Assembly (NCBI GenBank): GCA_001002765.1
Contig: LCMS01000010.1
Span: 123-64,122 of the forward strand
Direction of reading: 5' to 3'
DNA: 64,000 nucleotides
DNA from: Candidatus Uhrbacteria bacterium GW2011_GWE2_46_68
GTDB lineage: Bacteria > Patescibacteriota > Patescibacteriia > UBA9934 > GWF2-40-263
This document shows, in pieces, positions 15,865 to 64,000 of this stretch. Position 1 is the first letter of the stretch. Every line of letters begins with the position of its first letter. The position numbers and the translations under genes are program-made. The notes under the pieces are model-generated. The model saw only the letters and a list, made by a program, of their open reading frames with translations. It searched no databases and was not told the origin of the DNA.

Positions 15865-16512
15865 TCAAAACGGCATGGTGAGATTGATAACAGGTTGAGG
15901 GGCTATTTTTAAGGCAAAATCCACGGGAATCGCCTTTCTTTCTCCGCTCCTGTCCTCAAACGCGAGGGCTTGATACTTAAGTCCATACTCATACACCTCT
16001 TTGGTAACCCGCACATCGTCCAAACAGTATTGTTTGATCTTGTCCACTTCTCCCTGTTTCCACCACTCGATTGCCTGTAGGCCATGCCCTGTTTTTCGAT
16101 GCCCCACACTTGCGGCGGCTACATCATCCAGCTTGAGCCGAAACCCCAAGGCCTTTTGGATTTCCTCCAAAATATCGAGTTGTGGAAGCTTGAGGAGATC
16201 GCCTGCATAATAGTTATTCATGATAGGCAAATCAAAACTGCGAGAGTTATACCCGATCACTCGATCACAACGCTCCAACCGCGCCCAAAGGCGAGACAAT
16301 TCATGTTCCTCAAAGACCTCGAACGTATTGGTCTCGTAAAAATAAACGCCGACAACCGAGATTTTAAACTTTGTGTAGTCATTCTCGACGTCGGCAAAAC
16401 TATTTTGCGTTTCAATGTCCAATACCACTTCGTGCTTCATACGCGGCACAGTATAACGCAAGGAAGCGATTGGATCAAAATCAAATCTCCACAACAAAAC
16501 GCGAACCCGCAT
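15865..16512 (-). CDS. DEDD-family (DnaQ-like / RNase H-fold) 3'-5' exonuclease
   Basis: Exo I LDIETQN, Exo II GYNSRSFDLP and Exo III YCLDDV motifs in the 215-aa ORF. Confidence 0.6.
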   Translation of the reverse strand: MRVRVLLWRFDFDPIASLRYTVPRMKHEVVLDIETQNSFADVENDYTKFKISVVGVYFYETNTFEVFEEHELSRLWARLERCDRVIGYNSRSFDLPIMNNYYAGDLLKLPQLDILEEIQKALGFRLKLDDVAAASVGHRKTGHGLQAIEWWKQGEVDKIKQYCLDDVRVTKEVYEYGLKYQALAFEDRSGERKAIPVDFALKIAPQPVINLTMPF

Positions 16513-17736
16513 CGGTCGAAACGTAATCCTCCGGATTGTCTACTCTTGTAACAATCCGCTTATCGGTGTGATCCCAAAAAATATTTGGAACACCTTTTGC
16601 CATAAGGGACATACACCCCGCTACATTCATTGCCAAGCTCTTTTGATATTCATACTCGTCCAAAGGTTTTCCTGTAACCTCAAGATGGGTCATGAAAGCC
16701 GTGATCCAATCCTCAAGCGTCATACCCGACTCACCAAAATAAGGAGAGCTGGGGTCTTGTCTGGAGGCTTCAAGAAAATCAATGTCATGCTGAGGTGCGT
16801 ATCTTCCCTCTCGATCAGGCCGTGGGTTCCCCCCCCCCGCACCATTCCGATCTTTTCTTTTGTAATACCGCAAAATCCCGGGGCATCATCGTGTGGAGCC
16901 TGGAGAAGAAGGACTCGCCAGCCGGAAGCGAGTTTCCCTTGATCTTGATCTTCGGCTTCAAGGATTTCTTTTTTTGTTTTTCCACCATGCCCGGGAACGT
17001 AAAAACCGGCAGACGTTGGATGATACACGACGTTATCTATAATCAAGTCATGATCTTTAAAAATAAAACGAAAATGAGTTAAGACAAAATCAGGATGTTT
17101 CTTTCTATATTCCACCAAAAACTCTTGCACCACAGAAACAAAAAAGCCTAATCCCGTGGCAAAAGGAACGAGGAGGAGCCGTGTGAATCCTTGATCTTGT
17201 TTGATTTCGAGTGTTTCGCGACGTTCGTACAATCGTTTGGCGATTTGCTCCAAAGTGGGCACGGGTCGGGAAAGATTTTTCATGTGATCCAAAAAACCTT
17301 CCTTATGTAAAAGTTCAATTTGATCCTCGTATTGTTCACGAAGATTGTAAAAATTCTCGGCATACTCGAGAGTCTCTGCCAGACTCAACTCTTCTTTTGC
17401 CGGTTCTTTGTGTTTCACGAGATATTCAAAACGCTCAAGAAGATCGGCAAGTCGTTCGAGATCTGGAGTGGAGAGTTTACTGGTCGCCTCACGGAGAGCG
17501 GCAGGTTTGGTAAGGGATTCTTTGGAAATCCCGTGAGCTTTTGTAAAATCAATGATCTCTTGCCGCAGAGTTTCAAAGTGTGCGCGATGTTGTTCGGGCA
17601 AAGAATCACGGACACTTGAAACCGAATCCATGATGGCTTCGCCAAGAATTTCCGAAGTGCGTTTGACCCCCACCTCCGCAGGGGTGGCAGAGGAAAAAGA
17701 TTCTGAAGTTGGTCGAAAAAAAGAAACCATATTCAA
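16481..17736 (-). pseudogene. member of the multi-copy paralogous family, split by a frameshift at a G10 homopolymer (minus strand)
   Basis: ORF 16720..17736 encodes the conserved N-terminal domain (EAIMDSVSSVRDSLPEQHRAHFETLRQEIIDFTKAHGI...). ORF 16481..16873 encodes the family C-terminus (DPSSPYFGESGMTLEDWITAFMTHLEVTGKPLD) in another frame. They overlap at a run of 10 C (16829-16838). Confidence 0.6.
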
Positions 17737-18785
17737 TTCGTTTGTCCTCCAAATATCTTTCCAGCTTCATTCCATAGCCCATCAAATCCATGAACCTTCA
17801 AATAATACCACCACTCCGCTCCCCACAAATACACCTCGGACACACCTATCTCTTCGGAAAAATGAACACGATCACGCAAGGCTTTCTCATCAAACAACCC
17901 ATACCATTCCTCAAGCGGCCGATCTCCCAATGACATCGTAAACCATGGCTCGGCTTGAAGCTCGGAAACAACGACCTGATCGGTCCAAAAAGAAGCTGCA
18001 AGCACACGCAGGCGATAAAACAAAGGAGAAATGGGATACACAAAATATCCTGTCGTATCACTCCAGGTGACTTGATAAAGAGAAAATCCCAGTACATCGC
18101 TCATGCGTGCAAGCGGCCACCAAAACTCTAATTCCCCGCTCACAGTCAATTGAATGGGATGATCATCTTGTGCGCGCACAAGAGCCAAAGTTTCTTGAAG
18201 ATTCTCAGAGTCAATCGTCGGACACACTCCATAATCAAAAAGTGGTTCATTTTCTACTTGCCAACGCACAAGAGCTGGAGAATTTTTATAACGTGTGATC
18301 GCTTGTTGCACATAGATGGAAAACGACTCCCAACGCTCATGGTCGGGAAGAGACAGCGCCCAAGATGGAATATGACATTCAGGCCAACGCGGAACTTTTT
18401 GACCAATGACAAGAGTAATCTTCATGTCATAATCCTCTGCGATCGCCAGAAGCGCATCCATTTCTTTCCAATCATACTGTCCCTCCTCTTGTTCAATGTG
18501 ATTCCAGTAGAGAGGTATGCGTGCAAATCGGACGTTTTCTTCCTTTGCAAGAGCGCTAAAAACTTCCTCTGGACTCAATCCAAGTTCTCGCGCATACGCG
18601 GAAGAAAAAGTGATGCCAAACTTTGGCAAAGGTTGGGGATGAAAAATCCACCACATCATTCCTCCGGCCAAAAGAAAAAAAAGCACCGCTCCTCCTATGA
18701 TCCAGAGATGTTTTTGAAAACGTTGGCAACAAAACATAGCAGGCCTTAAATCTCCTCTTTCTTTTCTCGTAAAAAGGCGAGCCAA
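17733..18785 (-). CDS. putative glycoside hydrolase (TIM-barrel, GH5/GH42-like)
   Basis: N-terminal TM anchor. QVENEP motif typical of the retaining GH clan A acid/base catalyst. 350 aa. Confidence 0.4.
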   Translation of the reverse strand: MARLFTRKERGDLRPAMFCCQRFQKHLWIIGGAVLFFLLAGGMMWWIFHPQPLPKFGITFSSAYARELGLSPEEVFSALAKEENVRFARIPLYWNHIEQEEGQYDWKEMDALLAIAEDYDMKITLVIGQKVPRWPECHIPSWALSLPDHERWESFSIYVQQAITRYKNSPALVRWQVENEPLFDYGVCPTIDSENLQETLALVRAQDDHPIQLTVSGELEFWWPLARMSDVLGFSLYQVTWSDTTGYFVYPISPLFYRLRVLAASFWTDQVVVSELQAEPWFTMSLGDRPLEEWYGLFDEKALRDRVHFSEEIGVSEVYLWGAEWWYYLKVHGFDGLWNEAGKIFGGQTN

Positions 18786-20335
18786 CTTTCGATAATCCCA
18801 ATGGCAGCTTTAAACGGCGCTTCCACGATAAAATCAAAAAAGAAAAGAAAAATGTTCACACGTGGTGCACGCATGGCCATCCATCGCCCGGCACGCACAA
18901 TGGGCAAAAAGACAATATCGGCGATAAAGGTGAAAAGTCCTCCGGCGGTTTCCACGACCACCAAATCTTTTTTCGTCTGCCGGATCTTGAGACCGAAAAA
19001 CGCCACCAACATAAAAAAGAAAATGAAAAAGAGAATGGAAACAACGTTAAAAGCAAACAAATGAAGAATAAAAGAAATCACGCTTAATGTGAGAATAAAC
19101 GCGCCAACGTACAACACATTGAACACCATACCCAAAGCCCCTTTGGTCCAAGAACGACGCATCTTAAAGAGCACTAAAAAATCTTCTCCCCATCCGAATA
19201 ATCCTCGCGCTTCTTCCAAAATCTTTTCCGTATTACGTTTTCCCGGAACTTGAACGGTAAATCCAAGAAATGCCAAAAGAGCCGGAGGAAAAATAATATT
19301 CACAAACAGCGGGACGTAGTTGGTGGTGTGCAAGATGAACGTTTCGTATGGTGCTTCCAAAACAAGGGCCAACAACATCTTGGTAAAAAAGAGGAACACG
19401 GTAGCGCGAATCACTCCACGCGCCAATCGAGAACGAAAACGACTATATCGTTCTTGCGCCGCGCGCGTAAGCGCCGTCTCGATTTTTTCTTTTTGTGTAT
19501 TTTCAAATGCCTGATTAAATGCGTCCGGATCATCTTGAGTGATGTCGCGCAATAGATGGAACACGACGGCGTGACGGCGCATAAGACGATACAAAGAATC
19601 GCTCCCGGGATGTTGTAATTGATGCTCTGCGGTTTCCACAAACGCACTGAAGTTTTGTTCTACTTCTGCCACAACGGGATCTCCGGCTTGAGCTTTGCGC
19701 CACGTGGGAAAATACAACGTGAGCAAGCGAAACCGTAACATAGCGGGATTGGCTTTTAAAACAGAGCGATGAATCGCGATGAACAATTGAAGATCGCGAT
19801 CCTCTTCGGTCACAATCTTTGTGCTCCATTGCACACGTTTACGCATCTCCTGATACGCATATTGTGTCAGTGCCTCATCAACAAGCGGAGGATCCAACAG
19901 ATATTCGATTTCACACGTAAGCACGTCAAGGAGCCAATCATAATGGTCCTGACCTTTTTTGGAATCTTCGGGGAGTCCTGCAAAAAGTCCTTGATATTTG
20001 GAAAGAATTTGCGCAAGCTCCTCAATCTTTCTCTCCGGAATTTTTTTATTGGGAAAATAACGGGCCCAAATGAGCTCACGCAACAGATTGGTGGCAAGAT
20101 TGCGGTCCATCCCCTCTCCCATACGTCGTTTCAAAATGCGGCGAATCGCATTGCGCCGCAACAAATGATCCTCATCATACTCAAGTGTATTGCGCACAAT
20201 CTCATAGGCTGAGGCCGCAACCGAGAGTGTCTCATTGACTGTAATGACTTCTTCTTTGGGAGCCTCTTGCGCATCTTGTTTTACCCGCACAATGGTGCGC
20301 AGTAGGTGGTGGAGTGTTTGATCCATATAAAACAT
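18746..20335 (-). CDS. hypothetical polytopic membrane protein
   Basis: 529 aa. Soluble N-terminal half, C-terminal half with several hydrophobic helices. No recognisable domain. Confidence 0.5.
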   Translation of the reverse strand: MFYMDQTLHHLLRTIVRVKQDAQEAPKEEVITVNETLSVAASAYEIVRNTLEYDEDHLLRRNAIRRILKRRMGEGMDRNLATNLLRELIWARYFPNKKIPERKIEELAQILSKYQGLFAGLPEDSKKGQDHYDWLLDVLTCEIEYLLDPPLVDEALTQYAYQEMRKRVQWSTKIVTEEDRDLQLFIAIHRSVLKANPAMLRFRLLTLYFPTWRKAQAGDPVVAEVEQNFSAFVETAEHQLQHPGSDSLYRLMRRHAVVFHLLRDITQDDPDAFNQAFENTQKEKIETALTRAAQERYSRFRSRLARGVIRATVFLFFTKMLLALVLEAPYETFILHTTNYVPLFVNIIFPPALLAFLGFTVQVPGKRNTEKILEEARGLFGWGEDFLVLFKMRRSWTKGALGMVFNVLYVGAFILTLSVISFILHLFAFNVVSILFFIFFFMLVAFFGLKIRQTKKDLVVVETAGGLFTFIADIVFLPIVRAGRWMAMRAPRVNIFLFFFDFIVEAPFKAAIGIIESWLAFLREKKEEI

Positions 20336-22977: not shown

Positions 22978-24287
22978 TTAAACGATCACAGAGGAGCGAA
23001 CGCCGATGTTCTCATTCTGATCACCAGAACCTTCTATACCGAGGCAAACACAACGAACGCCATGATTCCAAAACGCGCTTAGTACAAGGACGGAGGAAGA
23101 AAAAAAAGCGCCTGTAAGACAACTGTAACTTTCAGTGTTTATTACATTATATGCATCATCAAGCGGCTCCTCTCTCTCAGAAAAGTGTGTCATAAAAGCC
23201 ATGATCCAGTCCTCTGGAGTCATACCGAACTCTTGAAAGTAAGGTGAGTCTGGATCGTCTTGAGCGTTTTGAAGAATGGAAAGATATTCATTGGGGGTTT
23301 TGTTTGCTTCAAGAGGAGGACGTGAAGTGAGCTTTCCTTGGGGTGTTCCTTGACCTTGTCGGGGAATAGAAGAAAAACCTATGGGAGTCTCCATGTCTTG
23401 GTCATCTAGGTTTGAAGGTTGAAAAAGATGAACGGTCCAACCGGGGGTTCCCAATCCCTTCTCTCCTGCCACCCCTGCGGAGGCAGGGGTCCATCGTCCT
23501 TCTGTTTGTTCTTCGAGTATCTGTGCTTTTGTTTTCCCCCATGACCTTTTTTTTGTAAAAGACTGTGGATAATAGACAAGGTTTGGAGAATCCCCCATGT
23601 CTGCTCCTTGATAGTCTTCCCACGTCCAGAGAGGATTGTTGATATCCAAATAAAAATCAGGATGGGACCCCTTATATCTAAGAATGAATCGTTTAAACGT
23701 TTCACAAAGGGAATCAAGGCTCATACCAAAGGGAACAAGGAGGAGTTTAGTAAAGCCTTGATCGTGTTTGGTGTGGAGAGTCTCACGGCGTTCAAACAGA
23801 CGCATGGCGATACTCCTTCTTTAAGTATTCCCGCTTCTTTAAGAAGGTTGAATTGAAAAGTGTATTGTTCACGAAGATGGTAAAACTCTTCGGCATACTC
23901 GAGGGCTTCGGCATAGTCTTCTTTCTTTGGTTCCCCATTCTTGAGAAGATATTCAAAACGTTCGAGAAGATTGGCAAGTCGTTCAAGGTCTTGGGTGGAG
24001 AGTTTGCTAGTAGCCTCACGGAGAGCGGCAGGTTTAGCAAGAGCAGCTTTGGGAATCCCATGAGCTTTTGTAAAATCAATGATCTCTTGTCGCAGAGTTT
24101 CAAAGTGTGCGCGATATTGTTCGGGCAAAGAATCACGAACACTTGAAACCGAATCCATGATGGCCTCATGGAGAGTAGCGGATAAAGGAGGTTCAGAAGA
24201 CAGCGTCCCCCTTCGTCCCGCCGTTGGCGGGACTTCGGAGGGACAGTTTTCACTTTTTGTGAAAACTGTTGGTCGAAAAAGAGACAT
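22978..24287 (-). pseudogene. member of the multi-copy paralogous family disrupted by an internal deletion/frameshift
   Basis: The N-terminal part (23721..24287) and C-terminal part (22978..23805) are in different frames. Alignment with the intact copy near 56400 shows loss of about 50 nt around 23800. Confidence 0.55.
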
Positions 24288-33625: not shown

Positions 33626-34876
33626 TTAAACGATTACCGAGGTACGTATACCAAGGTACCCGGAACGACTGCGATAGTTAGACCAGACGAAATTCACTTT
33701 CTGATCATTACAGTCCCAGTATGCACACGGTACTGAACTGATAAAAGAATATACAGCTCCTAAGAAACAACTATGACCTTCTATTCTTGTAGGGTTCCAT
33801 ATATCATCAAGAGGTTTTCCTGTTTCTTGAAGATGAGTCATAAAAGCTATGATCCAATCCTCGAGAGTCATACCGGATTCATGGGAGTAAGGGGAATCTT
33901 CCTTGTCTTTGCATGCTTGAAGAGTAGAAAAATATTCATTGGCGGATTGACCTATCTCAAGAGGAGGACGCGGGGTGAGGTCTCCTTGGAGTTTTCCTTT
34001 ACCTTGAGGAGGAATAAAAGCAAAACCTAAAGAGTTTGAATCTGACGGATTTGAGGGTTGGAGAAGATGAACCGTCCAGCCATTGAAAGAATCTGGATTG
34101 TTGTCTTGTGTCTCAAGTATCTGTGCCTTTGTCTTCCCTCCATGTCTATCTTCTGTAAAAGACTGTGGCTTATAGACAAGATTGGGAAAATTTCCTGTAT
34201 CTGCTCCTTGATATCCTTCTTCTTGTATCAAAAAAGAATCATTGGTTTTAGGGGCAAAGGTTGGATGAAATTGTTTGTAAGAGAGTAAGAATTGATCAAG
34301 GGTTTTTATAAGGACGTCAAGGCTCATGCCAAAGGGAACCAGAAGAAGTTTAGTGAAACCTTGTTCGTGTTTGGTTTGGAGAGTCTCACGGCGTTCGAAA
34401 AGACGGGAAGCGATTTGTTCGAGAGTGGGGATGGGGTACTTCTTACCGTCTATCCCTGTAATCGCTCCTTCTTTGAGAATACCTGCTTGTTCAAGGAGAG
34501 CGACTTGGGAAGTGTATTGTTTTTCGAGATGATAAAACTCTTCGGCATACTCACGAGCTTCGGAAAGTTTCTCTTTCATGGGTTCTTTTTTGACAATCAG
34601 ATACTTAAAGCGTTCGAGAAGATTGGCTAGTCGTTCAAGATCGGAAGTGGGGAGTTTGCTGGCAGCCTCGCGGAGAGCATCAGGTTTGGAAAGTAATTCT
34701 CTTGGAATATCGTGAGATGCTGCAAAATCAATAATCTCTTGTCGCAGAATGTTAAAATGTTCGTGGTGTTCTTTGGGAAGAGAATCACGGACACTTGAAA
34801 CCGAGGCAAGGACGGCTTCATGGAGAGCCGGTTCTATGGAATGAGCGGATTCGGGAGACGGTCGAGAAAAAGACAT
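33626..34876 (-). CDS. multi-copy paralogous family member (intact, 416 aa)
   Basis: Conserved family N-domain (LPKEHHEHFNILRQEIIDFAASHDI..., KHEQGFTKLLLVPFGMSLD, GWTVHLLQPS, GMTLEDWIIAFMTHLQETGKPLD). Variable C-terminal region. Terminal motif GIRTSVIV. Confidence 0.7.
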   Translation of the reverse strand: MSFSRPSPESAHSIEPALHEAVLASVSSVRDSLPKEHHEHFNILRQEIIDFAASHDIPRELLSKPDALREAASKLPTSDLERLANLLERFKYLIVKKEPMKEKLSEAREYAEEFYHLEKQYTSQVALLEQAGILKEGAITGIDGKKYPIPTLEQIASRLFERRETLQTKHEQGFTKLLLVPFGMSLDVLIKTLDQFLLSYKQFHPTFAPKTNDSFLIQEEGYQGADTGNFPNLVYKPQSFTEDRHGGKTKAQILETQDNNPDSFNGWTVHLLQPSNPSDSNSLGFAFIPPQGKGKLQGDLTPRPPLEIGQSANEYFSTLQACKDKEDSPYSHESGMTLEDWIIAFMTHLQETGKPLDDIWNPTRIEGHSCFLGAVYSFISSVPCAYWDCNDQKVNFVWSNYRSRSGYLGIRTSVIV

Positions 34877-34879
34877 ATA

Positions 34880-35245
34880 TCACGAAACGCGGCGGATAAG
34901 TAGATAAAAAATCCAGGGGGTGAGGAGGCCGAATAAGACAAGCCAGACACGCAGTATTCCCAAATCCACTCCCACGATCCAACACAAAATCCCGACCAAA
35001 ATCGAGAAAAAACAGCAAAAAACATAAGAAAGCCAAGATCGCTCCTTCCATGAGGATACCGCACTCCCAAACCAGGCACCAGACAAAATACCCACAAGTA
35101 AAAAAAGGTGAACAGAAAGGTAGCGCGAGACAAACCCCGGTCGCAGTGCATCTAAAATCCAAAACACGATGTAGCTCACAAGGCTTGTGAAAAAAATCGT
35201 GCCTGCCAATTGTTCACTGATCGTATGTTGTTTATGGAAAAACAT
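34880..35245 (-). CDS. hypothetical small membrane protein (4 TM)
   Basis: 121 aa, almost entirely hydrophobic helices. Confidence 0.4.
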   Translation of the reverse strand: MFFHKQHTISEQLAGTIFFTSLVSYIVFWILDALRPGFVSRYLSVHLFLLVGILSGAWFGSAVSSWKERSWLSYVFCCFFSILVGILCWIVGVDLGILRVWLVLFGLLTPWIFYLLIRRVS

Positions 35246-36701
35246 AAGCTCTCAAAAATTGCCAAAAAGAGGACCATGTGAAAGCCTCGCGCATCCATAT
35301 CATGCGAATCTTCCCTACATCCACAGATCCTTCTTGTTCTAAAATTCTCGGTAAAGAAAACGCAAACTTCCACGCGCCTTGTTCTTGTGCCAACATCGAG
35401 GCGTCAAAACTCGCTTCCGCCACCCACCATTCCCCTTCACGACGTGGAGGCATATAAGTTGCCAAAATATAATCCACTCCCAAGGTGTCCAAATCACTTG
35501 ATGCAACAAGTGAAACGGGATCGGGTTGAAAAAATGTTCCTGCCGATGTTGCAATCATGCCATCACTTTGTATTTCTATGTCTCCCAATGGCACGGAAAG
35601 AATCGCAAGCCCGGGTTGGATAATCGTCTGCGTCACAGTTTCAAAAGGAGCAGTCACGGACACGCTTTGCCCTCCAATCTCCACCTCTTGCACTCCTTCC
35701 GCATGCCTCGTTTCAAAAGAAAACTGTTTGCCGTTTGTCACCAATTGCGTTCCCATCGGCGTATCGCGATATCCCACCTCATCGGCCAAAAATAGTGATC
35801 GGACAAACACCCATTTTTGTTGCGGGGTCGCAATCGAACGGAAAAAAATATCCCGCCCCACATTGAGTTCTATTTTGTACACGCCTTCGGACAAATCTGA
35901 AGCACTGACAGTGATCGTCTGTAAAAAGGAAGGAAGGGCGGTTGCCTTGGTGACTCCATCATCGGTCATGCGTGCTTCTGCCACGGCCTGATCTTCCTCA
36001 TTAAATACAAGAATTTGCACAGAATCATCCCCCTCTTCTCTATTCATATCCATATAGGCAAAGGAAAAAGAGAGCGTTTCGTCTTTCACATATGTCTTGA
36101 TCGTATGATGCCCGCGAAAACTCAAATCCGTGATTTGCATCACAGAAGATGAAGTGTAAAACACCGGCTCATAGGAAATCGACCAATCATCATGATAGGT
36201 TGCAACTTGTTCGACCGGAGGCGGGGATGCAAAAAAATCTTCCAAAGAATGATAGGTAAGCTCGCGTTGCAATAAGAGACGATCCCCTTCTTGAATCCGC
36301 GACCAAGAAGATTGATCCAATAAAAGATTTTGAAGAGGATGCAAATCAAACGCCTGATGATCTGCAAAAACCAATCCTCCAAACTCGATAATGGGAACGT
36401 TTGCATTCTTAAACCAAATCTCCGCGGTGATGGTCTCAAAAGATCGATGAGGATGAACAAAAAGATACACCGGATCTCCGGTTAACACTTGTACGAGATC
36501 CCCTTGCGCATCTGTTTTGGATGATGAGGCACGAGATCCCGGAATAAGATCATCCAAAAAAGGTGAAGAAGTGCCTGGAGTTTTTTCCACAACAAAAACT
36601 CCGGAAGGAACCAACTCTTGCCACAACAACCAGCCCCCAAAAATAAAAGGAGCCCCTATGATCAACCCTTGAGTAAACCGTAAAAAAAGTTGGGTCTTCA
36701 C
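35232..36701 (-). CDS. hypothetical secreted/membrane-anchored protein
   Basis: 489 aa. N-terminal signal/anchor (LIIGAPFIFGGWLLW). No recognisable domain. Confidence 0.45.
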   Translation of the reverse strand: MKTQLFLRFTQGLIIGAPFIFGGWLLWQELVPSGVFVVEKTPGTSSPFLDDLIPGSRASSSKTDAQGDLVQVLTGDPVYLFVHPHRSFETITAEIWFKNANVPIIEFGGLVFADHQAFDLHPLQNLLLDQSSWSRIQEGDRLLLQRELTYHSLEDFFASPPPVEQVATYHDDWSISYEPVFYTSSSVMQITDLSFRGHHTIKTYVKDETLSFSFAYMDMNREEGDDSVQILVFNEEDQAVAEARMTDDGVTKATALPSFLQTITVSASDLSEGVYKIELNVGRDIFFRSIATPQQKWVFVRSLFLADEVGYRDTPMGTQLVTNGKQFSFETRHAEGVQEVEIGGQSVSVTAPFETVTQTIIQPGLAILSVPLGDIEIQSDGMIATSAGTFFQPDPVSLVASSDLDTLGVDYILATYMPPRREGEWWVAEASFDASMLAQEQGAWKFAFSLPRILEQEGSVDVGKIRMIWMREAFTWSSFWQFLRAYVFP

Positions 36702-38390: not shown

Positions 38391-39650
38391 TTAAATCATC
38401 ACCGAGGTGTGAACACCAAAAAGCTCGCTTCGACGGTTGGTGCCACTCTGACCAATCTCTACCCGTCGCCATGTATGATTCCAACACGCGTCTGATAAAG
38501 AGACAGCGTAAGGAAAAAGAGATCTCATAAGATAAGAAGCGCTTTCTGTATTGTTTACAATATTATCCAAAGGTTTTCCTGTTTCTTGAAGATGAATCAT
38601 AAAGGCTATAATCCAATCCATGGGAGTTAATCCGGACTCTAGAAAATAAGGGGAATCAGAATTGTTTTGAACCTCCCGAAAAATAGAAAAATACTCCGAG
38701 GGCGACTTTCCCGCCTCAAGAGAAGGGCGACCTCCTTGGGATGTCCCTTGACCTTCGCGAGGAATAGAAACAAAACCTTTGGAATACTGATCGGAGGGAT
38801 CCGAGGGTTGAAAAAGATGAACCGTCCAACCTGAAAAAAAATCTTCAGCATCTCTTTGTTTGTTAAGAATCTCTGTCTTCGTTTGACCCTGATGAGACCT
38901 ATCGAGAAACAATGGATCGTAAATAATTACGTTAGATCCTTTGGTATCCACTCTTTCGGAAAAACTTATAAAAAAAGGATTATTTGCATTGAGATCAAAA
39001 GAGGGGTGAACCTCTTTGTAGTCACGAAGAAATTGTTTAAGAACATCCGCAAGAACTTCGATGCTCATGCCAAAGGGAACAAGAAGGAGTTTGGTGAAAC
39101 CTTGGTCATGCTTGGTTTTTAGTTTCTCACGACGCTCAAACAAACGAACAGCGATTTGTTCCAAAGTGGGGATGGGATAGGTACGTTTATCTATACCTCG
39201 GATGGCTCCTTCTTCGAGAATACCGACTTGTTCAAAAAAGGAAACCTGAGAATTATATTGTTCCTTGAGGTGATAGTATTTCTCGGCATATTCAAGAGGA
39301 TCGGTAGGTTCTTTGGGTTCTTTCTTTACAATCAGATACTGAAAGTGCTCAAGAAGATAAGTGAGTCTCTCAAGGTCTGGGATGGAAAGTTTGCTGGTCA
39401 CCTCGCGCAGGAGGTCGGGTTTGGCGAGGGATTTTTTTGTGATCCCGTGAGCTTTTGTAAAATTAATGATCTCTTGTCGCAGAGTTTCAAAATGCGCGCG
39501 GTGTTGTTCAGGAAGAGAATCACGAATACTTGAAACCGAATCCATAATGGCTTCGCCAAGGATTTCCGAAGTGCGTCTAACCCCTACCTCCGCAAGGGCG
39601 GCAGACGGGGAAGATTCCAAACTTGGTCGAAAAAGAGACATAGATATCAA
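38391..39650 (-). CDS. multi-copy paralogous family member (intact, 419 aa)
   Basis: Family N-domain (EAIMDSVSSIRDSLPEQHRAHFETLRQEIINFTKAHGI...). C-terminal motif GVHTSVMI. First of three tandem copies. Confidence 0.7.
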   Translation of the reverse strand: MISMSLFRPSLESSPSAALAEVGVRRTSEILGEAIMDSVSSIRDSLPEQHRAHFETLRQEIINFTKAHGITKKSLAKPDLLREVTSKLSIPDLERLTYLLEHFQYLIVKKEPKEPTDPLEYAEKYYHLKEQYNSQVSFFEQVGILEEGAIRGIDKRTYPIPTLEQIAVRLFERREKLKTKHDQGFTKLLLVPFGMSIEVLADVLKQFLRDYKEVHPSFDLNANNPFFISFSERVDTKGSNVIIYDPLFLDRSHQGQTKTEILNKQRDAEDFFSGWTVHLFQPSDPSDQYSKGFVSIPREGQGTSQGGRPSLEAGKSPSEYFSIFREVQNNSDSPYFLESGLTPMDWIIAFMIHLQETGKPLDNIVNNTESASYLMRSLFPYAVSLSDACWNHTWRRVEIGQSGTNRRSELFGVHTSVMI

Positions 39651-39653: not shown

Positions 39654-40946
39654 TTAAAGCATCACCGAGGAACGCACACCAGTATCCACAACCCAACCAA
39701 GAAGACTATTCCCGAAGAGATGAATCCGACGACTGCCACGGCTCCAACGCGCTCTTGGCACAAGGTAGGAGAAAAGAAAAAAAGCACCTGTAAGATTAGA
39801 GGCGCTCTCTATGCCATTTAGATAGTCATCCAGTGGTTTTCCTGTTTCGGAAAGATGAATCATAAAGGCTGTGATCCAATCTTCCGGAGTCATACCTGTT
39901 TCACCATGATAGGGAGAATCTTTATCGTCTTGAGCATTTTGAAGAATGGAAAGATATTCATTGGGAGTTTTGCTTGCTTCAAGAGAAGGACGAGGGACGA
40001 GGTCTCCTTGGGATGTTCCTTTACCTTGTCGGGGAATATGAGCAAAGCCCATGGGAGCTTCAGTATCTTGTGAGTCAGAGTTTGATGGTTGAAAAAGATG
40101 AACCGTCCAACCGGGAAAGGAATCTTGATTGTCTTCTTGTTCCCTAAGTATCTCCATCTTGGTCTTTCCTTGATGACCCTTTTCATCAAAAGACTGTGGA
40201 TAATAGAAAAGATTTGGAGAATCCCCCGTGTCTGCTCCTTGATAGTCTCCCGATGTGAAGAGAGGCATGCTGGTATCAAGATCAAAAGAGTGGGACTTTT
40301 TATATTTGATGAAAAATTGTTTGATGGTTTCTTGGAGAGCATCAAGGCTCATCCCAAAAGGAACGAGAAGAAGTTTGGTAAAACCTTGGTCGTGTTTGGT
40401 TTTGAGAGTCTCGCGGCGTTCAAACAGACGAGAAGCTATTTGTTCGAGAGTTGGCACGGGATATTCATGACCGTCTATACCTAGGATGACTCCTTCTTTG
40501 AGGATGCCCACTTCCTCAAGAAGCTCTACTTGAGAATCGTATTGCTCACGAAGATGATAAAACTTCTCTCCATACTCAATGGCTTTGGCAGGGTCTATCT
40601 CTTCTTTCTTTGGTTCTCCATTCTTGAGAAGATATTCAAAGCGTTCGAGAAGGAGAGCGAGTCGTTCAAGGTCTTGGGTGGAGAGTTTGCCGGTCACCTC
40701 GCGCAGGAGATCAGGCTTGCCAAGAGATTCTCTTGGAATCCCGTGAACCTCGGTAAAAGTGATGATCTCTTGTCGCAGAGTTTCAAAGTGCGCGCGATGT
40801 TGTTCGGGCAAAGAATCACGGACACTTGAAACCGAATCCATGATGGCCTCACCAAGGATTTCCGAAGTGCGTCTAACCCCTGCCTCCGCAGGGACGGCAG
40901 AGGAAAAAGATTCTGAAGTTGGTCGAAAAAAAGACATAGATATCAA
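39654..40946 (-). CDS. multi-copy paralogous family member (intact, 430 aa)
   Basis: Family N-domain. Terminal motif GVRSSVML. Separated by 3 bp from both flanking paralogs. Confidence 0.7.
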   Translation of the reverse strand: MISMSFFRPTSESFSSAVPAEAGVRRTSEILGEAIMDSVSSVRDSLPEQHRAHFETLRQEIITFTEVHGIPRESLGKPDLLREVTGKLSTQDLERLALLLERFEYLLKNGEPKKEEIDPAKAIEYGEKFYHLREQYDSQVELLEEVGILKEGVILGIDGHEYPVPTLEQIASRLFERRETLKTKHDQGFTKLLLVPFGMSLDALQETIKQFFIKYKKSHSFDLDTSMPLFTSGDYQGADTGDSPNLFYYPQSFDEKGHQGKTKMEILREQEDNQDSFPGWTVHLFQPSNSDSQDTEAPMGFAHIPRQGKGTSQGDLVPRPSLEASKTPNEYLSILQNAQDDKDSPYHGETGMTPEDWITAFMIHLSETGKPLDDYLNGIESASNLTGAFFLFSYLVPRARWSRGSRRIHLFGNSLLGWVVDTGVRSSVML

Positions 40947-40949: not shown

Positions 40950-42299
40950 TTAAATGATCACCGAGGAACGAGCGCCGGCGTTCTTGTCGTCATCACGAAG
41001 ACTGCTCCTACTGAGGCAAGCTTGTCGTTCAAAACGCCCCCAACATGCATTCGATGTAGGAATGGAAAGAGGGAAAAAAACTCCTGCAAGACAAGAAATG
41101 CTTTCTTTATTATTTTGCCAGTTATCCAATGGTTTTCCTGTTTCAGAAAGATGAATCATAAAGGCCATGATCCAATCTTCCGGAGTCATGCCTGTTTCAC
41201 CGTGATAGGAAGAGTCTTTATCACCTTGAGCTTTTTGAAGAATGGAAAGATATTCAATGGGAGATTTTCCTGTTTCAAGAGGAGGTCGAGGGACGAGGTC
41301 TCCTTGAGGTGTTCCTTGTCCTTCTCTGGGAATAGAAGAAAAGCCCGGGGAATGTGGATTGGAAGGATCAGAAGGCTGGAGAAGATGAACGGTCCAACCG
41401 GGGGTTCCCTCTCCCTTCTCTCCTGCCACCCCTGCAAAGGCAGGGGTCCATCGTCCTTGGGCTTGTTCCTTAAGTATCTCCATCTTGGTCTTCCCCCCAT
41501 GACCCTCTCTTGTAAAAGACTGTGGATAATAGACAAGATTTGGGGAATCCCCTGTGTCTGCTCCTTGATATCTTGGCCATGTCCAGAGAGGAATACTGGT
41601 ATCAAGACCAAAAGAGGAGTGGGACTCTTTATATTTGATGAGAAATTGTTTGAGTGTTTCTCTGAGAGTATCAAGACTCATCCCAAAGGGAACAAGAAGA
41701 AGTTTGGTAAAACCTTGGTCGTGTTTGGTTTTAAGTTCCTCACGGCGTTCAAACAGACGTATGGCGATTTGTTCCAAAGTGGGGATGGGATAGATTTTAC
41801 CGTCTATACCTAGGATAGCTCCTTCTTTAAGTATTCCTGCTTCCTCAAGAAGCTCTACTTGAAAATTATATTGTTCACGAAGATTGTAAAGACGTTCAAT
41901 TTCTTGAAGATGTTTCGGAAGTTTTTCTTTCTTTGGTTCCCCGTTCTTGAGAAGGTATTCAAAACGTTCGAGAAGATCGGCAAGTCGTTTGAGATCTGGA
42001 GTGGAGAGTTTGCCGGCGGCCTCGCGGAGAGCGGAGGGTTTGGAAAGTGTGTCTTTGAAAATCCCATGAACCTTTGTAAAATCAATGATCTCATGTCGCA
42101 GAGTTTCAAAATGCGCTCGGTGTTGTTCGGGAAGAGAATCGCGGACACTTGAAACAGAATCCATGATGGCTTCACCAAGAAGTGCAGAAGACACCGGATC
42201 CCCGCCTGTGCGGGGATGACGGTTGCGGGAAGAGTGTGACTCCACAGGGGTAACGGAGGAACGAGGAGAAAATTCAGGAGATGAACGAACGAAAGACAT
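40950..42299 (-). CDS. multi-copy paralogous family member (intact, 449 aa)
   Basis: Family N-domain with a divergent leader. Optional insert GRWTPAFAGVAGEKGEGTP. Terminal motif GARSSVII. Confidence 0.7.
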   Translation of the reverse strand: MSFVRSSPEFSPRSSVTPVESHSSRNRHPRTGGDPVSSALLGEAIMDSVSSVRDSLPEQHRAHFETLRHEIIDFTKVHGIFKDTLSKPSALREAAGKLSTPDLKRLADLLERFEYLLKNGEPKKEKLPKHLQEIERLYNLREQYNFQVELLEEAGILKEGAILGIDGKIYPIPTLEQIAIRLFERREELKTKHDQGFTKLLLVPFGMSLDTLRETLKQFLIKYKESHSSFGLDTSIPLWTWPRYQGADTGDSPNLVYYPQSFTREGHGGKTKMEILKEQAQGRWTPAFAGVAGEKGEGTPGWTVHLLQPSDPSNPHSPGFSSIPREGQGTPQGDLVPRPPLETGKSPIEYLSILQKAQGDKDSSYHGETGMTPEDWIMAFMIHLSETGKPLDNWQNNKESISCLAGVFFPLSIPTSNACWGRFERQACLSRSSLRDDDKNAGARSSVII

Positions 42300-55591: not shown

Positions 55592-56752
55592 TTAGATGAG
55601 AACCGAGGTGCGAATACCTCTATACCAATAAGTACCGTACCCTTCATCCAATATTGCCTCATGGCAATCTCTATCCCAATAGGCTAGAGGTAAGTAAAGA
55701 GCAAAAGGAAAAAAGGCCCCGATAAGATAGGATTGTTTTTCCATACCGTTTTTATAATCATCCATTGGTTGTCCCTTTTCTGTAAGGTGGGTCATAAAAG
55801 CAATGATCCAATCTTCGGGAGTAAGTCCTGTTTCACCATGATAGGGAGAGTTTTTATCACCTTGAGCTTTTTGAAGAATGGAAAGATATTCATTGGGAGA
55901 TTCTCCTGCTTCAAGAGGAGGTCGAGGGACAAAGTCTCCTTGGGGTGTTCCTTGGCCTTTGCGGGAAATGGAAGCAAAGCCCGGGGAATCTGAATCAGAA
56001 GGATTCGAGGGTTGGAAAAGATGAACAGTCCACCCTGGAAAGGAATCTTGATTGTCTTCTTGTTCTTTGAGTATCTGTGCTTTTGTCTTTCCTTGATGAC
56101 CTGTCAGATCAAAAGACTGTGGCTTGTAAACAAGGTTTGGGGAATCTCCTGTGTCTCCTCCCCACAATGCACAAAGAGATTCATGGGCATTGAGATTAAA
56201 AAAAGAATTCTTTTGTTTGTAAGCAATAAGAAATTGTTTGAGGGTTTCTTGGAGAGCATCAAGGCTCATCCCGAATGGAACAAGGAGGAGTTTGGTAAAA
56301 CCTTGGTCGTGTTTAGTAGAAAGTTCCTCGCGGCGTTCAAACAGACGCATGGCGACTTGTTCCAAGGTGGGGATGGAATAGGTATTACCATCTATGCCTA
56401 GGATAGCTCCTTCTTTGAGTATTCCTACTTCCTTAAGAAGGTTAAATTGAAAAGTGTATTGTTCACGAAGACTATAAAGACGTTCAATTTCTTGAAGATG
56501 TTCAGGGAATTTTTCTTTCTTTGGTTCCCCATTCTTAAGAAGATACTCAAAGCGTTCAAGAAGGAGAGCGAGTCGCTCAAGATCTGAAGTGGAGAGTTTG
56601 CTAGTAGCCTCGCGCAGGAGGTCAGGCTTACCAAGAGATTCTCTAGAAATCCCGTGAGCTTTTGTAAAATCAATAATCTCTTGTCGTAAAGTTTCAAAGT
56701 GTGCGCGATATTGTTCGGGCAAAGAATCACGGACACTTGAAACCGAATCCAT
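55592..56752 (-). CDS. multi-copy paralogous family member (386 aa; leader removed by deletion, starts at the conserved MDSVSS)
   Basis: Family N-domain and terminal motif GIRTSVLI. Upstream remnant MSLCGTKGDSVF* shows a deletion relative to the leader of the copy at 24287. Confidence 0.65.
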   Translation of the reverse strand: MDSVSSVRDSLPEQYRAHFETLRQEIIDFTKAHGISRESLGKPDLLREATSKLSTSDLERLALLLERFEYLLKNGEPKKEKFPEHLQEIERLYSLREQYTFQFNLLKEVGILKEGAILGIDGNTYSIPTLEQVAMRLFERREELSTKHDQGFTKLLLVPFGMSLDALQETLKQFLIAYKQKNSFFNLNAHESLCALWGGDTGDSPNLVYKPQSFDLTGHQGKTKAQILKEQEDNQDSFPGWTVHLFQPSNPSDSDSPGFASISRKGQGTPQGDFVPRPPLEAGESPNEYLSILQKAQGDKNSPYHGETGLTPEDWIIAFMTHLTEKGQPMDDYKNGMEKQSYLIGAFFPFALYLPLAYWDRDCHEAILDEGYGTYWYRGIRTSVLI

Positions 56753-56837
56753 GATGGCTTCGTGGAGAGTAGCGGATAAAGGAGGTTCAGAAGACAGAGT
56801 CCCCCTTCGTCCCGCAAAGAGACATAAATATCAAAGG

Positions 56838-58109
56838 TTAAACCACCACCGAAGACCGCAAACCAATGGCCCCAACCCGAGTACGAGGACCACCCCTGTC
56901 GAGGTTAGCCCGACAGCTATCACGGCTCCAAGACACGCAAGGCACACGGGAGGAGAAGCGAAAAAAAACTCCTGTAAGGTAAGAGATACTTTCTTTGTTT
57001 GTGGGATTCCATGCATCATCAAGAGGTTGTCCTGTTTCAGAAAGATGAATCATAAAAGCTGTGATCCAATCTTCGGGAGTCATGCCTGTTTCACCATGAT
57101 AGGGAGAGTCTTTGTCACCTTGAGCTTTTTGAAGAATGGAAAGATATCCATTGGGGATTTTACCTGCTTCAAGAGGAGGTCGATCCCTCCCTTCGCGAAG
57201 GGAGGGATGGGGTGTTCCTTGGCCTTCTCTGGGGATGGGAGCAAAGCCTTTGGGAGTTTCAGTGTCTTGTTCGTTCGGGTTTGATGGTTGAAGAAGATGA
57301 ACAGTCCAACCGGGGGTTCCCAATCCCTTCCCTCCTGCCACCCCTGCAAAGGCGGTCCCGCCTGTGGCGGATCCCGCCGTAGGCGGGAGGGTCCATCGTC
57401 CTTTGGCTTGTTCCTTAAGCATCTCCATCTTGGTCTTTCCTTGATGATCTTTCGGATCAAAAGACTGTGGATAGTAGACAATGTCTGGAAAATCTCCTAT
57501 GTCTGCTCTTTTATATCCTTCACCCGTCCAGAGAGGATCTTCGGTATCAAGATCAAATGAGGAGTGGGACTCTTTATATTTGAGTAGGAATTGTTTGAAG
57601 GTTTCTCGGAGAGTATCAAGGCTCATGCCAAAGGGAACAAGAAGAAGTTTGGTAAAGCCTTGGTCGTGTTTAGTCTCGAGAGTCTCACGGCGTTCAAACA
57701 GACGCATGGCGATTTGTTCCAAGGTGGGGATGGGATAAGTGTTACCGTCTATGCCTAGGATGGCTCCTTCTTTGAGGATGCCTACTTCTTTAAGAAGGTT
57801 AAATTGAAAAGTGTATTGTTCACGAAGATTGTAAAGACGCTCAACTTCTTGAAGATGTTTAGGGAGTTCTTCTTTCTTTGGTTCCCCATTCTTAAGCAGA
57901 TATTCAAAACGTTCAAGAAGGAGAGCGAGTCGTTCAAGATCTTGGGTAGAAAGTTTTTTTGTAGCCTCGCGCAGGAGGTTAGGCTTGCCAAGAGATTCTC
58001 TGGAAATCCCATGAACTTTTGTAAAATCAATGATCTCTTGTCGCAGAGTTTCAAAATGTGCGCGATATTGTTCAGGTAAAGAATCGCGAACACTTGAAAC
58101 AGAATCCAT
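56838..58109 (-). CDS. multi-copy paralogous family member (423 aa, starts at MDSVSS)
   Basis: Family N-domain. Insert with tandem palindromic units (TLPPTAGSATGGTAFAGVAGGKG). Terminal motif GLRSSVVV. A leader remnant without a start codon abuts the uvrD stop. Confidence 0.7.
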   Translation of the reverse strand: MDSVSSVRDSLPEQYRAHFETLRQEIIDFTKVHGISRESLGKPNLLREATKKLSTQDLERLALLLERFEYLLKNGEPKKEELPKHLQEVERLYNLREQYTFQFNLLKEVGILKEGAILGIDGNTYPIPTLEQIAMRLFERRETLETKHDQGFTKLLLVPFGMSLDTLRETFKQFLLKYKESHSSFDLDTEDPLWTGEGYKRADIGDFPDIVYYPQSFDPKDHQGKTKMEMLKEQAKGRWTLPPTAGSATGGTAFAGVAGGKGLGTPGWTVHLLQPSNPNEQDTETPKGFAPIPREGQGTPHPSLREGRDRPPLEAGKIPNGYLSILQKAQGDKDSPYHGETGMTPEDWITAFMIHLSETGQPLDDAWNPTNKESISYLTGVFFRFSSRVPCVSWSRDSCRANLDRGGPRTRVGAIGLRSSVVV

Positions 58110-58192
58110 GACGGCTTCGTGGAGAGTAGCGGATAAAGGAGGTTCAGAAGACAGAGTCCCCCTTCGTCCCGCCGTTGGCGGGACTTCGTTTA

Positions 58193-60262: not shown

Positions 60263-60323
60263 TTACAGATCCCCTATGACCCCTAAGACCTGTCTTTGGA
60301 GGATAAGAAAAACCCCGAGCACT

Positions 60324-60713: not shown

Positions 60714-60747
60714 GATGCACCTCTGAAAGGATTGGGGGGTCTATTGG

Positions 60748-60803: not shown

Positions 60804-60808
60804 CTACA

Positions 60809-62919: not shown

Positions 62920-62925
62920 AGTTAT

Positions 62926-64000
62926 TTAAATGATCACTGAGGAACGTAAGCCAAATCCAATATCTGCAATATCACAACGATGACTTCCCGCATAGACCTG
63001 TAACAAACTGGAGTTCCAATCCATAAAAGGCGTACGAAGAGAAGAAGGAAAAAAAGCTCCCGTAAGATAAGAGGTATTTATGTCGCGAGTTAATGATGCA
63101 TCTATGGGTTTTCCCGTTTCTACAAAATGTGTCATAAAAACCATGATCCAATCTTCAGGAGTGAGGCCGGATTCTTGGAAGTAGGGGGAGCTAGAGTTGC
63201 CTCGAGCTTCTTCAAGAATGGAAAGATATTCCGTGGGAGTTTTGTTTGCTTCAAAAGGGGGACGGAAATTCTCGTCTCCTCGGAGTGTTCTTTGGTCTTT
63301 TTGGGAAATGGTGGCAAAGCCTTTGAGAGTTTTGGTATTTGAGGGTTGAAAGAAATGAGCCGTCCAGCCTGGAAAAAAATTTTGGTTATCCTCTTGTCCC
63401 TCAAGTATCTGCATTTTGGTCTTTCCTCGATGACCATTTTCTTCAAAAAACTTTGGATAATAAACAAGACTGGGAGTATCTCCTCTGTCTGCTCCTTGAT
63501 AACGCTTCTGAATGGCAAAAGAATAGGAATCGCTAATATCAAGATCGGGATGAGACTCTTTGTAAGAAAGAAAAAATTGTTTGAACGTTTCTATGAGAAC
63601 ATCAAGGCTCATACCAAAGGGAACGAGAAGGAGTTTGGTAAAGCCTTGGTCGTGTTTGGTGCGGAGGATTTCTCGGCGTTCAAAGAGACGAATGGCGATT
63701 TGTTCGAGTGTGGGGATGGGATAGGTATTACCATCTATGCCTTTGATCGCATCACCCATGAGAATCCCGACTTGTTCAAGAAGTTCGACTTGAGAATCGT
63801 ATTGTTCTTTGAGGCGATAGTGTTCCTCGGCATACTCAAGGGCTTCTTTGTTTGTCCAAGGTTCCTTCTTAACAATGAGGTGTTCAAAGCGCTCAAGAAG
63901 ATTGGCAAGCCGCTCGAGGTTGGGAGTGGAGAGTTTCTCGGCAGCTTTGCGGAGGAGATCGGGTTTGGCAAGCGCTTCTCTTGGAATCCCTTGAGCTTGT
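62926..64000 (-). CDS. multi-copy paralogous family member, 5' end beyond the window edge
   Basis: The reading frame is open from 62926 to the window end. The upstream in-frame translation (…LSTPNLERLANLLERFEHLIVKKEP…) matches the family N-domain. Terminal motif GLRSSVII. Confidence 0.6.
   Translation of the reverse strand, partial: QAQGIPREALAKPDLLRKAAEKLSTPNLERLANLLERFEHLIVKKEPWTNKEALEYAEEHYRLKEQYDSQVELLEQVGILMGDAIKGIDGNTYPIPTLEQIAIRLFERREILRTKHDQGFTKLLLVPFGMSLDVLIETFKQFFLSYKESHPDLDISDSYSFAIQKRYQGADRGDTPSLVYYPKFFEENGHRGKTKMQILEGQEDNQNFFPGWTAHFFQPSNTKTLKGFATISQKDQRTLRGDENFRPPFEANKTPTEYLSILEEARGNSSSPYFQESGLTPEDWIMVFMTHFVETGKPIDASLTRDINTSYLTGAFFPSSLRTPFMDWNSSLLQVYAGSHRCDIADIGFGLRSSVII

Follow-up and report, generated by a model that had tools for sequence, protein, structure and literature searches.

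Nine paralogous genes of an Uhrbacteria genome as a probable dispersed and largely frozen repertoire of DGR target proteins

The window, by which is meant the whole stretch of 64,000 nucleotides of DNA from Candidatus Uhrbacteria GW2011_GWE2_46_68 that was analysed, contains nine genes which are, with a probability of roughly 85%, paralogues of the target family of diversity-generating retroelements (DGRs) of the CPR (Patescibacteria), forming a dispersed and largely frozen repertoire that is reshuffled between paralogues. In a DGR, a reverse transcriptase (RT) and the accessory protein Avd copy the RNA of a template repeat (TR), misincorporating opposite adenines, and the resulting cDNA overwrites a variable region (VR); codons of the types AAY, TAY, GAY, CAG and AGG are thereby randomised while the scaffold stays fixed, and the ligand-binding surface changes. 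What a sequence-only reading of the window had described as a hypervariable C-region followed by a conserved tail is such a VR, carried on a C-type-lectin-like fold.

That reading had proposed nine homologous minus-strand genes occupying about 17% of the window. The ORF list, the translations and a tblastn inventory bear this out: all of the copies (9/9) lie on the minus strand where it had placed them, and they sum to 11,228 nt, or 17.5% of the 64 kb. Their features are listed here.

16481..17736, minus strand: copy 1, disrupted near 16,840 by a single frameshift; tblastn finds it as two HSPs, one over query residues 4-314 and the other over 306-408, in frames -1/-2
22978..24287, minus strand: copy 2, disrupted near 23,811 by a single frameshift (or small deletion); its tblastn HSPs lie in frames -2/-3
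22978-23122: VR of copy 2
23437-23478: GC-rich insertion in copy 2
33626..34876, minus strand: copy 3, 416 aa, intact ORF; VR about 33626-33775
38391..39650, minus strand: copy 4, 419 aa, number 1 of a tandem triplet; VR about 38391-38540
39654..40946, minus strand: copy 5, 430 aa; VR 39654-39800
40950..42299, minus strand: copy 6, 449 aa, number 3 of the tandem triplet; VR 40950-41096
41394-41441: GC-rich insertion in copy 6
55592..56752, minus strand: copy 7, 386 aa from its ATG; VR about 55592-55735, with a 2-codon deletion
56838..58109, minus strand: copy 8, 423 aa; VR 56838-56984
57306-57401: GC-rich palindromic insertion in copy 8
62926..64000, minus strand: copy 9, cut by the window end, beyond which its N-terminus lies; VR about 62926-63075

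Against the first copy, the seven readable copies show 54-59% identity, and mean column identity is 65% in alignment A1, where all the conserved blocks quoted in the sequence-only reading are found; the copies are therefore true paralogues and not assembly duplicates. Homology persists upstream of the ATG in copies 7 and 8, and the sequence P0050 is identical to copy 7 with an N-terminus longer by 43 aa, while P0073 is an intact orthologue of copy 2 with an identical tail. Copy 3 is solitary, flanked by sugar-nucleotide genes and unidentified ORFs. A motif TAAC[CT]TTTGAT lies 3' of the stop codon in four copies. A second locus of the same lineage, the sister locus, holds four further copies amid housekeeping genes. 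The family is, as had been claimed, expanded, diversifying, partly pseudogenised (two frameshifted copies) and absent from curated domain libraries.

N-terminally, the proteins have a helical region that is specific to the subfamily (about residues 20-145); then come a family-wide core (about 130-430), which contains a divergent FGE/C-type-lectin-like region, and the VR in the final 45 residues or so. The conserved N-domain that had been proposed holds within the Uhrbacteria subfamily, to which the N-terminal 120 aa or so (EAIMDSVSS...) are specific, but the wider family conserves residues of about 130-430 instead, the supposedly variable tail included. Similarly, the variable segment is present, but it is not a stretch of 40-50 aa that varies throughout: it spans about 32-45 aa in which invariant scaffold residues (VP, W, L, G.R.SV) are interleaved with hypervariable positions.

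Neither the window copies nor 62 diverse relatives match any model in Pfam, NCBIfam or PADLOC, in agreement with the earlier claim that no Pfam domain or TM segment is recognisable; the family shows no significant HMM match to FGE-sulfatase (PF03781) or to other annotated CLec domains, and no copy has a TM-like segment (maximum Kyte-Doolittle 19-mer below 1.5). Sequence and profile searches of the PDB with the copies, the family profile and the TR-encoded peptide as queries returned nothing. An N-terminal ATPase domain of the AAA_5 (McrB/MoxR) type occurs in none of the window copies, in 5 of the 62 distant members in alignment A4 (P0188, P0204, P0246, P0247, P0260) and in P0280, and an AAA_5-fused family member is likewise a DGR target. 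Copy 5 served as the reference for searches and for structure modelling. AF2 with a shallow alignment, in which all sequences were more than 58% identical, gave a pLDDT of 55, and after distant homologues were added the final model reached a pLDDT of 89.8 and a pTM of 0.77. A Foldseek search of the PDB with this model gave no significant match; its best structural neighbours are OvoA, EgtB, SUMF2 and PvdO, with TvpA and Mtd also among the matches. In the predicted structure the VR sits on a C-type-lectin/FGE-like fold, as in DGR target proteins.

Adenine mutagenesis has left its spectrum in the VRs of the subfamily to which the window genes belong. Upstream, A is the conserved base in 46 of the 129 columns conserved at 90% or more, whereas it is so in none of the 23 such columns of the VR and tail (Fisher p=1.4e-4). 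Within the VR, variable columns fall preferentially at codon positions 1 and 2, while position 3 keeps T/C, and single columns show Y/F/C/S, D/G/V/A, Q/R/L and R/G/W spectra, which correspond to TAY, GAY, CAG and AGG codons respectively. Over 106 non-redundant sequences, the share of K/E/Q/M/W among the residues is 4.9% at hypervariable VR columns, while upstream columns of equal variability have 29.3% (p=8e-79).

Homologues of the window genes are DGR targets. In locus L002, three family genes accompany a bAvd gene, an intergenic TR and an RT that bears the motifs IGNLTSQ and YGDD, and the TR-VR mismatches of the three genes fall on TR adenines in 14/15, 17/21 and 24/39 cases. L085, a locus of an Uhrbacteria MAG, has a complete cassette with 23 of 26 mismatches on A. 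The domains bAvd (PF22296) and RVT_1 adjoin family genes in these two loci, in L086 and in about 40 further loci, and the order family gene, Avd (minus), RT (plus) is found in 10 of 34 loci. A TR-type DNA pattern, inferred in part from the VR profile of the window, was scanned against metagenomes and matched 46 loci, about 40 of which lie some 100 nt from Avd/RT. Over 25 cognate TR-VR pairs, adenines are mismatched in 385 of 738 cases (52%) and non-adenines in 28 of 2143 (1.3%). In the reference genomes a single-protein scan yielded no loci, while an alignment-based scan found family loci, the window's own close subfamily not being among them. The sequence-only reading had taken the genes as the best candidate for a previously undescribed system, which is not supported, since these homologues are bona fide CPR DGR targets with adenine-specific TR/VR mismatches beside bAvd and RT.

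The window itself contains no TR detectable by blastn of all nine 3' ends or by an Asn-rich six-frame scan, no tblastn match to RT or Avd with E<0.04, and no neighbouring ORF with RVT_1 or bAvd in a Pfam scan; the sister locus has no RT or Avd within 10 kb and no TR in 21 kb. Among the window, the sister locus and the 46 metagenome TR loci, no TR qualifies as cognate to the window VRs at about 2% non-A mismatch or less, and the best real TR or other sequence compared with them shows at least 19%. The TR of L085 was considered as the cognate and rejected, since it serves a different subfamily, and a single TR shared by all window VRs was rejected because few VR columns are conserved.

Deviation was expressed relative to a subfamily TR reconstructed from the VR consensus (…GCN TAY TGG AAY CGN GAY AAY CGN CAR GCN AAY CTN … CGT TCC TCG GTG), a procedure which is partly circular and uncertain at synonymous sites, and from this scaffold the window VRs deviate by 12-34% at non-A positions. 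Copies 8 and 5, which conform best, differ from the inferred TR at 57-60% of A and 12-15% of non-A positions. Copy 8, whose VR conforms best to the DGR scaffold (VPCVSWSRDSCRANLDRGGPRTRVGAIGLRSSVVV*), has mismatches at 20/35 A and 13/112 non-A positions, copy 2 at 19/35 and 22/110, and copy 3 reaches 34% at non-A positions. Scaffold residues are broken in several copies: the VR scaffold of copy 4 is degraded (LMRSLF..SLS..GVHTSVMI), and copy 1, which has the most divergent C-terminal tail (..GSRFVVEI*), has a VR that scarcely aligns to the inferred template.

Independently assembled near-orthologues carry identical VRs. The sequence P0079 differs from copy 4 only in residues 17-156, its VR being identical; L035 holds a VR identical to that of copy 6; and P0296 is 98.8% identical to copy 3, the one difference in the VR being a 4-aa deletion. 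Allelic differences consist of blocks 100% identical to other paralogues. The difference between the VRs of copy 5 and its L035 allele resembled fresh DGR homing, a reading that was rejected because the VR of the allele is 100% identical to the paralogue P0034 and differs at T/C third positions. The identity of VRs across assemblies may reflect a single aquifer population, and minority variants are lost from view in a consensus assembly; likewise, chimerism of metagenome contigs could have produced the mosaic alleles, some of the contigs being just 1.3-2.3 kb long.

Several other explanations of the family must be weighed against this evidence. If the subfamily had no retroelement and its C-terminal hypervariability arose by point mutation under diversifying or relaxed selection after duplication, then a window without TR, RT or Avd and the substantial non-A divergence between copies would be accounted for, but the lack of conserved A in the VR (0/23 as against 46/129), the NNY pattern of the codons, the fact that K/E/Q/M/W are depleted 6-fold (p=8e-79) and the homology to proven DGR targets with the same scaffold would all be left unexplained; the column spectra fit single-codon adenine randomisation instead, and the explanation is highly improbable. 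It is the implicit model of the sequence-only reading. A polymorphic enzyme family, which that reading had also suggested, here taken as FGE-like or sulfoxide-synthase-like, finds its argument in OvoA, EgtB, SUMF2 and PvdO as the best structural neighbours of the model. It is nevertheless quite improbable, given that the sequences match neither FGE-sulfatase nor any enzyme family, that the same fold is the standard scaffold of DGR variable proteins (TvpA and Mtd being among the matches), that randomisation affects the C-terminal surface, which is also the case in binding proteins, and that the genomic linkage is with DGR cassettes and not with biosynthetic genes. The suggestion of anti-defence effectors is, like that of enzymes, unsupported here.

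It is hardly credible that the copies are assembly artefacts, produced by collapsed or duplicated reads of one locus. Mosaic variants on short metagenome contigs may be chimeras, but the copies are just 54-72% identical, their flanking genes differ, and the arrangement recurs in independent NCBI, JGI and ENA assemblies on contigs of up to 230 kb; the duplication case that the sequence-only reading had itself raised is thereby ruled out. A larger, though still doubtful, possibility is that the nine copies are active remote targets, rewritten in trans by one or a few DGRs elsewhere in the Uhrbacteria genome. The subfamily has a strong adenine-mutagenesis footprint, copies 8 and 5 mismatch the inferred TR far more often at A than at non-A positions, DGR RT/Avd/TR cassettes occur in Uhrbacteria, and remote DGR targets exist and are overlooked by cassette-centred surveys (Roux et al. 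2021, PMC8144416). The search for a cassette was confined to the window and the sister locus, and a DGR acting in trans may therefore exist. Set against this are the non-A mismatch of the window VRs, which far exceeds the 1.3% or so of the family's cognate pairs, the broken scaffold residues, the identical VRs of near-orthologues from independent assemblies, the sole allele whose VR differs, that VR matching another paralogue's exactly, and the failure to find a cognate TR in the window, in 21 kb of the sister locus or among the 46 TR loci.

On the preferred reading of a dispersed and largely frozen repertoire, the copies in this genome, nine in 64 kb and others on further contigs, would stand without an adjacent cassette, and most of the window VRs would no longer be rewritten, given their drift at non-adenine positions and their stability from one assembly to another. 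Their primary diversity would have been written by reverse-transcription mutagenesis and not by recombination, with further variation coming from whole-block sequence exchange between paralogues. The proteins are probably soluble variable ligand-binding proteins, putatively recognising host, partner or phage molecules, in view of the known role of the family and because neither a TM nor a signal sequence is present; the earlier suggestion of a variable interaction repertoire serving an epibiotic lifestyle accords with the standard reading of such proteins. Two forms of organisation can be put forward tentatively. One is a germline-like stored library of dozens of fixed, retroelement-written VRs, in which paralogues scattered amid housekeeping genes would be re-assorted by block exchange, a shift away from on-the-fly hypermutation that possibly followed loss of the retroelement. 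The other is a single DGR with more than 20 remote targets, which would be unprecedented.

The assignment turns about 17% of the window, together with several hundred CPR "hypothetical proteins", into a defined class of DGR-written variable binding proteins. The tests for conserved-A and K/E/Q/M/W depletion provide a means of recognising orphan DGR targets independently of a TR. An expanded repertoire without cassettes poses the question of the fate of DGR targets once the retroelement has been lost or has moved, and it bears on the upkeep of recognition diversity in ultra-small episymbionts.

DGR variable proteins of the CPR (Patescibacteria) were reportedly the subject of work by Paul et al. 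in Nat Microbiol in 2017. CPR DGR targets without recognisable domains or a TM segment have already been described, as have remote targets (Roux et al. 2021, PMC8144416). The window family resembles the targets of CPR DGR clade 2 in its lineage, in the cassette of its homologues (target, TR, Avd, RT), in the C-terminal VR with adenine-specific TR/VR mismatches and in the lack of a TM or recognisable domain; it differs in that the window subfamily has an extra N-terminal helical region of about 120 aa, is expanded to many dispersed copies per genome with no adjacent cassette, and has VRs which have drifted at non-adenine positions and are apparently static. TvpA of Treponema denticola (PDB 2y3c) and Mtd of the Bordetella phage BPP-1 (PDB 1yu0) are the archetypal C-type-lectin-fold DGR variable proteins, and they share with the window family a VR at the extreme C-terminus, an AAY-rich template and an interspersed invariant scaffold ending in G-x-R. 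Their sequence identity to it is, however, 7-12%, with no sequence-level match and no significant Foldseek match, and whereas TvpA is a lipoprotein and Mtd a phage tail-fibre tip, the window proteins have no export or anchoring signal.

DGRs with multiple or remote targets are known in, for example, cyanobacteria and Legionella, and there too a genome has several paralogous target genes, some of them distant from the RT. To our knowledge, the remote VRs in those cases stay near-perfect matches to the TR at non-A positions, whereas the window VRs do not, and no TR was found for them. Gene-conversion repertoires, in which cassettes are exchanged for antigenic variation, offer only an analogy: near-identical alleles differ by exact paralogue blocks and the copies are both tandem and dispersed, but neither an expression site nor silent cassettes are in evidence, and an assembly chimera could account for the exchange. 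The family belongs to a known kind of system, here unusually expanded and apparently frozen, and is not a new molecular mechanism.

The hypervariable C-terminal region and conserved tail that the sequence-only reading described in this family are genuine as to their variability, but their meaning has changed, since both an adenine footprint and the existence of homologues that are targets of diversity-generating retroelements (DGRs) identify the variable stretch as a DGR variable region (VR). In distant members this stretch is rich in Asn over a fixed scaffold (e.g. GAYFPSSGNAPNAYWNRDNRQANVDRNNPDNRNDNCGVRPAVRV), which has the look of a VR in the sequence. Proof is provided by L002, a locus from another genome or metagenome that carries three family genes, a bAvd accessory gene and a reverse transcriptase (RT) with IGNLTSQ and YGDD motifs, together with an intergenic template repeat (TR) of 130 nt that matches the 3' ends of all three family genes; the TR-VR mismatches lie on TR adenines in 14/15, 17/21 and 24/39 cases for the three genes. 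A degenerate TR pattern built from L002 and the VR column profile of the window copies matched 46 contigs from metagenomes, and Avd/RT is located roughly 100 nt from the match in about 40 of them. Among 25 cognate TR-VR pairs, mismatches occur at 385 of 738 adenines (52%) compared with 28 of 2143 other bases (1.3%). The gene order target, TR, Avd (-), RT (+) is found at 10 of 34 loci, and an Uhrbacteria MAG (L085) carries a complete DGR cassette, in which A accounts for 23 of the 26 mismatched positions. These homologues are rewritten by RT/Avd from the TR with adenine-specific errors. In L002 (4057-5081) and L084 (798-1849) the DGR RT is encoded by two overlapping ORFs that lie in different frames, and elsewhere (e.g. 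L048, 4296-5417) by a single ORF; the split could reflect a frameshift, sequencing error or decay.

No RT, Avd or TR was found in the window, or within 10 kb of the four further copies at a second locus of the same Uhrbacteria lineage. Tests that are independent of a TR nevertheless show that adenine mutagenesis wrote the window VRs. In 12 sequences of the Uhrbacteria type, 8 of them from the window, columns with at least 90% conservation have A as the conserved base in 46 of 129 cases upstream and in 0 of 23 cases in the VR and tail (p=1.4e-4). Variation within the VR falls preferentially at codon positions 1 and 2, with T/C retained at position 3. Adenine mutagenesis of AAY cannot yield K, E, Q, M or W. 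In 106 non-redundant subfamily sequences these residues make up 4.9% at 16 hypervariable VR columns, compared with 29.3% at 13 upstream columns of equal variability (p=8e-79), and the residue sets of single columns are precisely those predicted for TAY (Y/F/C/S), GAY (D/G/V/A), CAG (Q/R/L) and AGG (R/G/W).

To assess whether the window VRs are still being rewritten, they were compared with a template rebuilt from the subfamily consensus. They differ from it at about 50-60% of its A positions, and non-A mismatch ranges from 12% (copy 56838; copies are named by low-end coordinate) to 34% (copy 33626), 10-25 times the 1.3% of cognate pairs. All of these figures are approximate, because the rebuilt template involves some circularity and its synonymous sites are uncertain. 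Scaffold residues have been lost in several window copies. VRs are identical in near-orthologues from other assemblies (P0003, P0004, P0047, P0050, P0073, P0079 and the L035 copy of 40950). Near-identical alleles (P0004, P0005, P0047 and P0079 against copies 39654, 56838 and 38391; L035 1037-2227) differ solely within continuous stretches (residues 63-155, 180-252, 375-430 and 17-156), and these match other paralogues at 95-100% identity: P0004 matches P0025 in its N-terminal block, P0047 matches P0057 and P0028 in its middle block, and P0005 matches P0034 across the entire VR, each at 100% identity. New retro-mutagenesis was therefore rejected as the source of the allele differences, which by their sequence point either to gene conversion among paralogues or to chimeras in the metagenome assemblies. 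It is conceivable, if rather doubtful, that a DGR elsewhere in the genome targets the window VRs in trans; we favour a dispersed, largely frozen repertoire of DGR-written VRs, because of the non-A drift, the identity of VRs across assemblies and the paralogue-derived allele blocks.

All nine minus-strand genes that had been proposed (low-coordinate ends at 16481, 22978, 33626, 38391, 39654, 40950, 55592, 56838 and 62926) were recovered at the coordinates given for them in the ORF list, translations and tblastn, and sum to 11,228 nt, or 17.5% of this strand-biased CPR window. They are true paralogues, since the readable copies align to the first at 54-59% identity and sit among genes with unrelated housekeeping or cell-envelope roles (class II ribonucleotide reductase, HflX-type GTPase, S41 protease, sugar-nucleotide enzymes, glycosyltransferases, two subtilases, UvrD helicase, YceG). 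Copies 16481 and 22978 each contain one frameshift (tblastn), and copy 39654-40946 is hypothetical protein UX57_C0010G0042 of Candidatus Uhrbacteria bacterium GW2011_GWE2_46_68 (100% identity). No copy matched Pfam, NCBIfam, PADLOC or PDB sequences or has a TM-like segment, in agreement with the earlier report of neither a Pfam domain nor a TM segment. Resemblance to the N-terminus of the family reaches upstream of the annotated ATG in copies 55592-56776 and 56838-58184 (…AGRRGTLSSEPPLSATLHEAI/V-MDSVSS), and the true starts are uncertain because P0050, an orthologue in the databases, has 43 additional aa. Two paralogous subtilases (Peptidase_S8) whose C-termini carry FG-GAP repeats are encoded in tandem (50867-52924 and 52927-55008) immediately upstream of copy 55592; nearby ORFs at 35232-36701, 36698-38380, 18746-20335 and 42926-45052 have no family match. 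G+C is 0.55-0.58 at 2001-8000 and ~0.45 in the remainder of the window.

Some copies also contain repeated sequence:

57306-57401, 23437-23478 and 41394-41441: GC-rich, internally palindromic in-frame insertion, at the equivalent position in three of the nine copies
24216-24232 and 58167-58183: 17-nt piece of this insertion, repeated in the N-terminal leaders of two copies

The insertion (…CCCGCCTACGGCGGG…CCGCCACAGGCGG…), which encodes GRWT(LPPTAGSATGGT)AFAGVAG.KG.GTPGW, resembles a small palindromic repeat element that coding sequence can accommodate. Directly 3' of the stop codon, below their low-coordinate ends, copies 33626 (which no other family gene follows), 39654, 40950 and 56838 share TAAC[CT]TTTGAT…, a sequence that may derive from a DGR cis element (IMH) or belong to a translation-initiation region common to them.

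A word-indexed search returned more than 329 relatives, the best 120 of which are 58-100% identical; none of these 120 is annotated, most come from Uhrbacteria, and single genomes hold many of them. The profile search that had been proposed, run exhaustively, yielded 738 clusters (50% identity; E<=1e-3), and reference genomes place the family in several CPR lineages: Uhrbacteria, Magasanikbacteria, Saccharibacteria, Berkelbacteria, Gottesmanbacteria and Staskawiczbacteria. The region common to all members (profile positions ~107-411, residues ~130-430 of the window proteins) takes in the variable tail, while the N-terminal ~120 residues are restricted to the Uhrbacteria subfamily. An N-terminal AAA_5 ATPase (McrB/MoxR/dynein type) is fused to the domain in distant members (P0188, P0204, P0246, P0247, P0260, P0280 and L086 58-2247), comprising 5 of the 62 diverse aligned relatives as well as P0280; at least the L086 member is itself targeted by a DGR, whose TR, bAvd and RT lie downstream. 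The fusion hints that some variable proteins may have an intracellular, ATP-driven role. Cassette-less expansion is not unique to the window's genome, since Magasanikbacteria, an independent CPR lineage, has in MAG Mag-100m-18 at least 12 dispersed family loci (L008, L009, L014, L017-L019, L023, L025-L027, L030, L034) with no RT/Avd within 10 kb. Contigs binned as uncultured Gammaproteobacteria (L003-L005, L007, L029) also encode members with 40-49% identity to the window protein, probably through misbinning of CPR DNA or horizontal transfer.

AlphaFold2 prediction, suggested earlier together with Foldseek, reached pLDDT 89.8 and pTM 0.77 with a diverse alignment (55 with a shallow one). The modelled fold appears to be a C-type-lectin-like (CLec-like) one, and a divergent variant, since Foldseek and sequence profiles detected nothing; this agrees with Roux et al. 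2021 (PMC8144416), who describe CPR targets as having no recognisable domains and predicted novel C-Lec variants in CPR. The window proteins are probably soluble.

The copy number, cassette-less dispersal, drifted and static VRs and mosaic exchange stand out as unusual, putatively biological features that are worth follow-up. The family had been put forward as a previously undescribed system; because CPR DGRs and their unannotated targets are already established, it is instead a new subfamily of known CPR DGR targets. By likeness to Mtd and TvpA, in which the VR is the ligand-binding face, the window VRs would form the ligand-binding face of the CLec-like domain, and the repertoire would give an episymbiont many recognition specificities.
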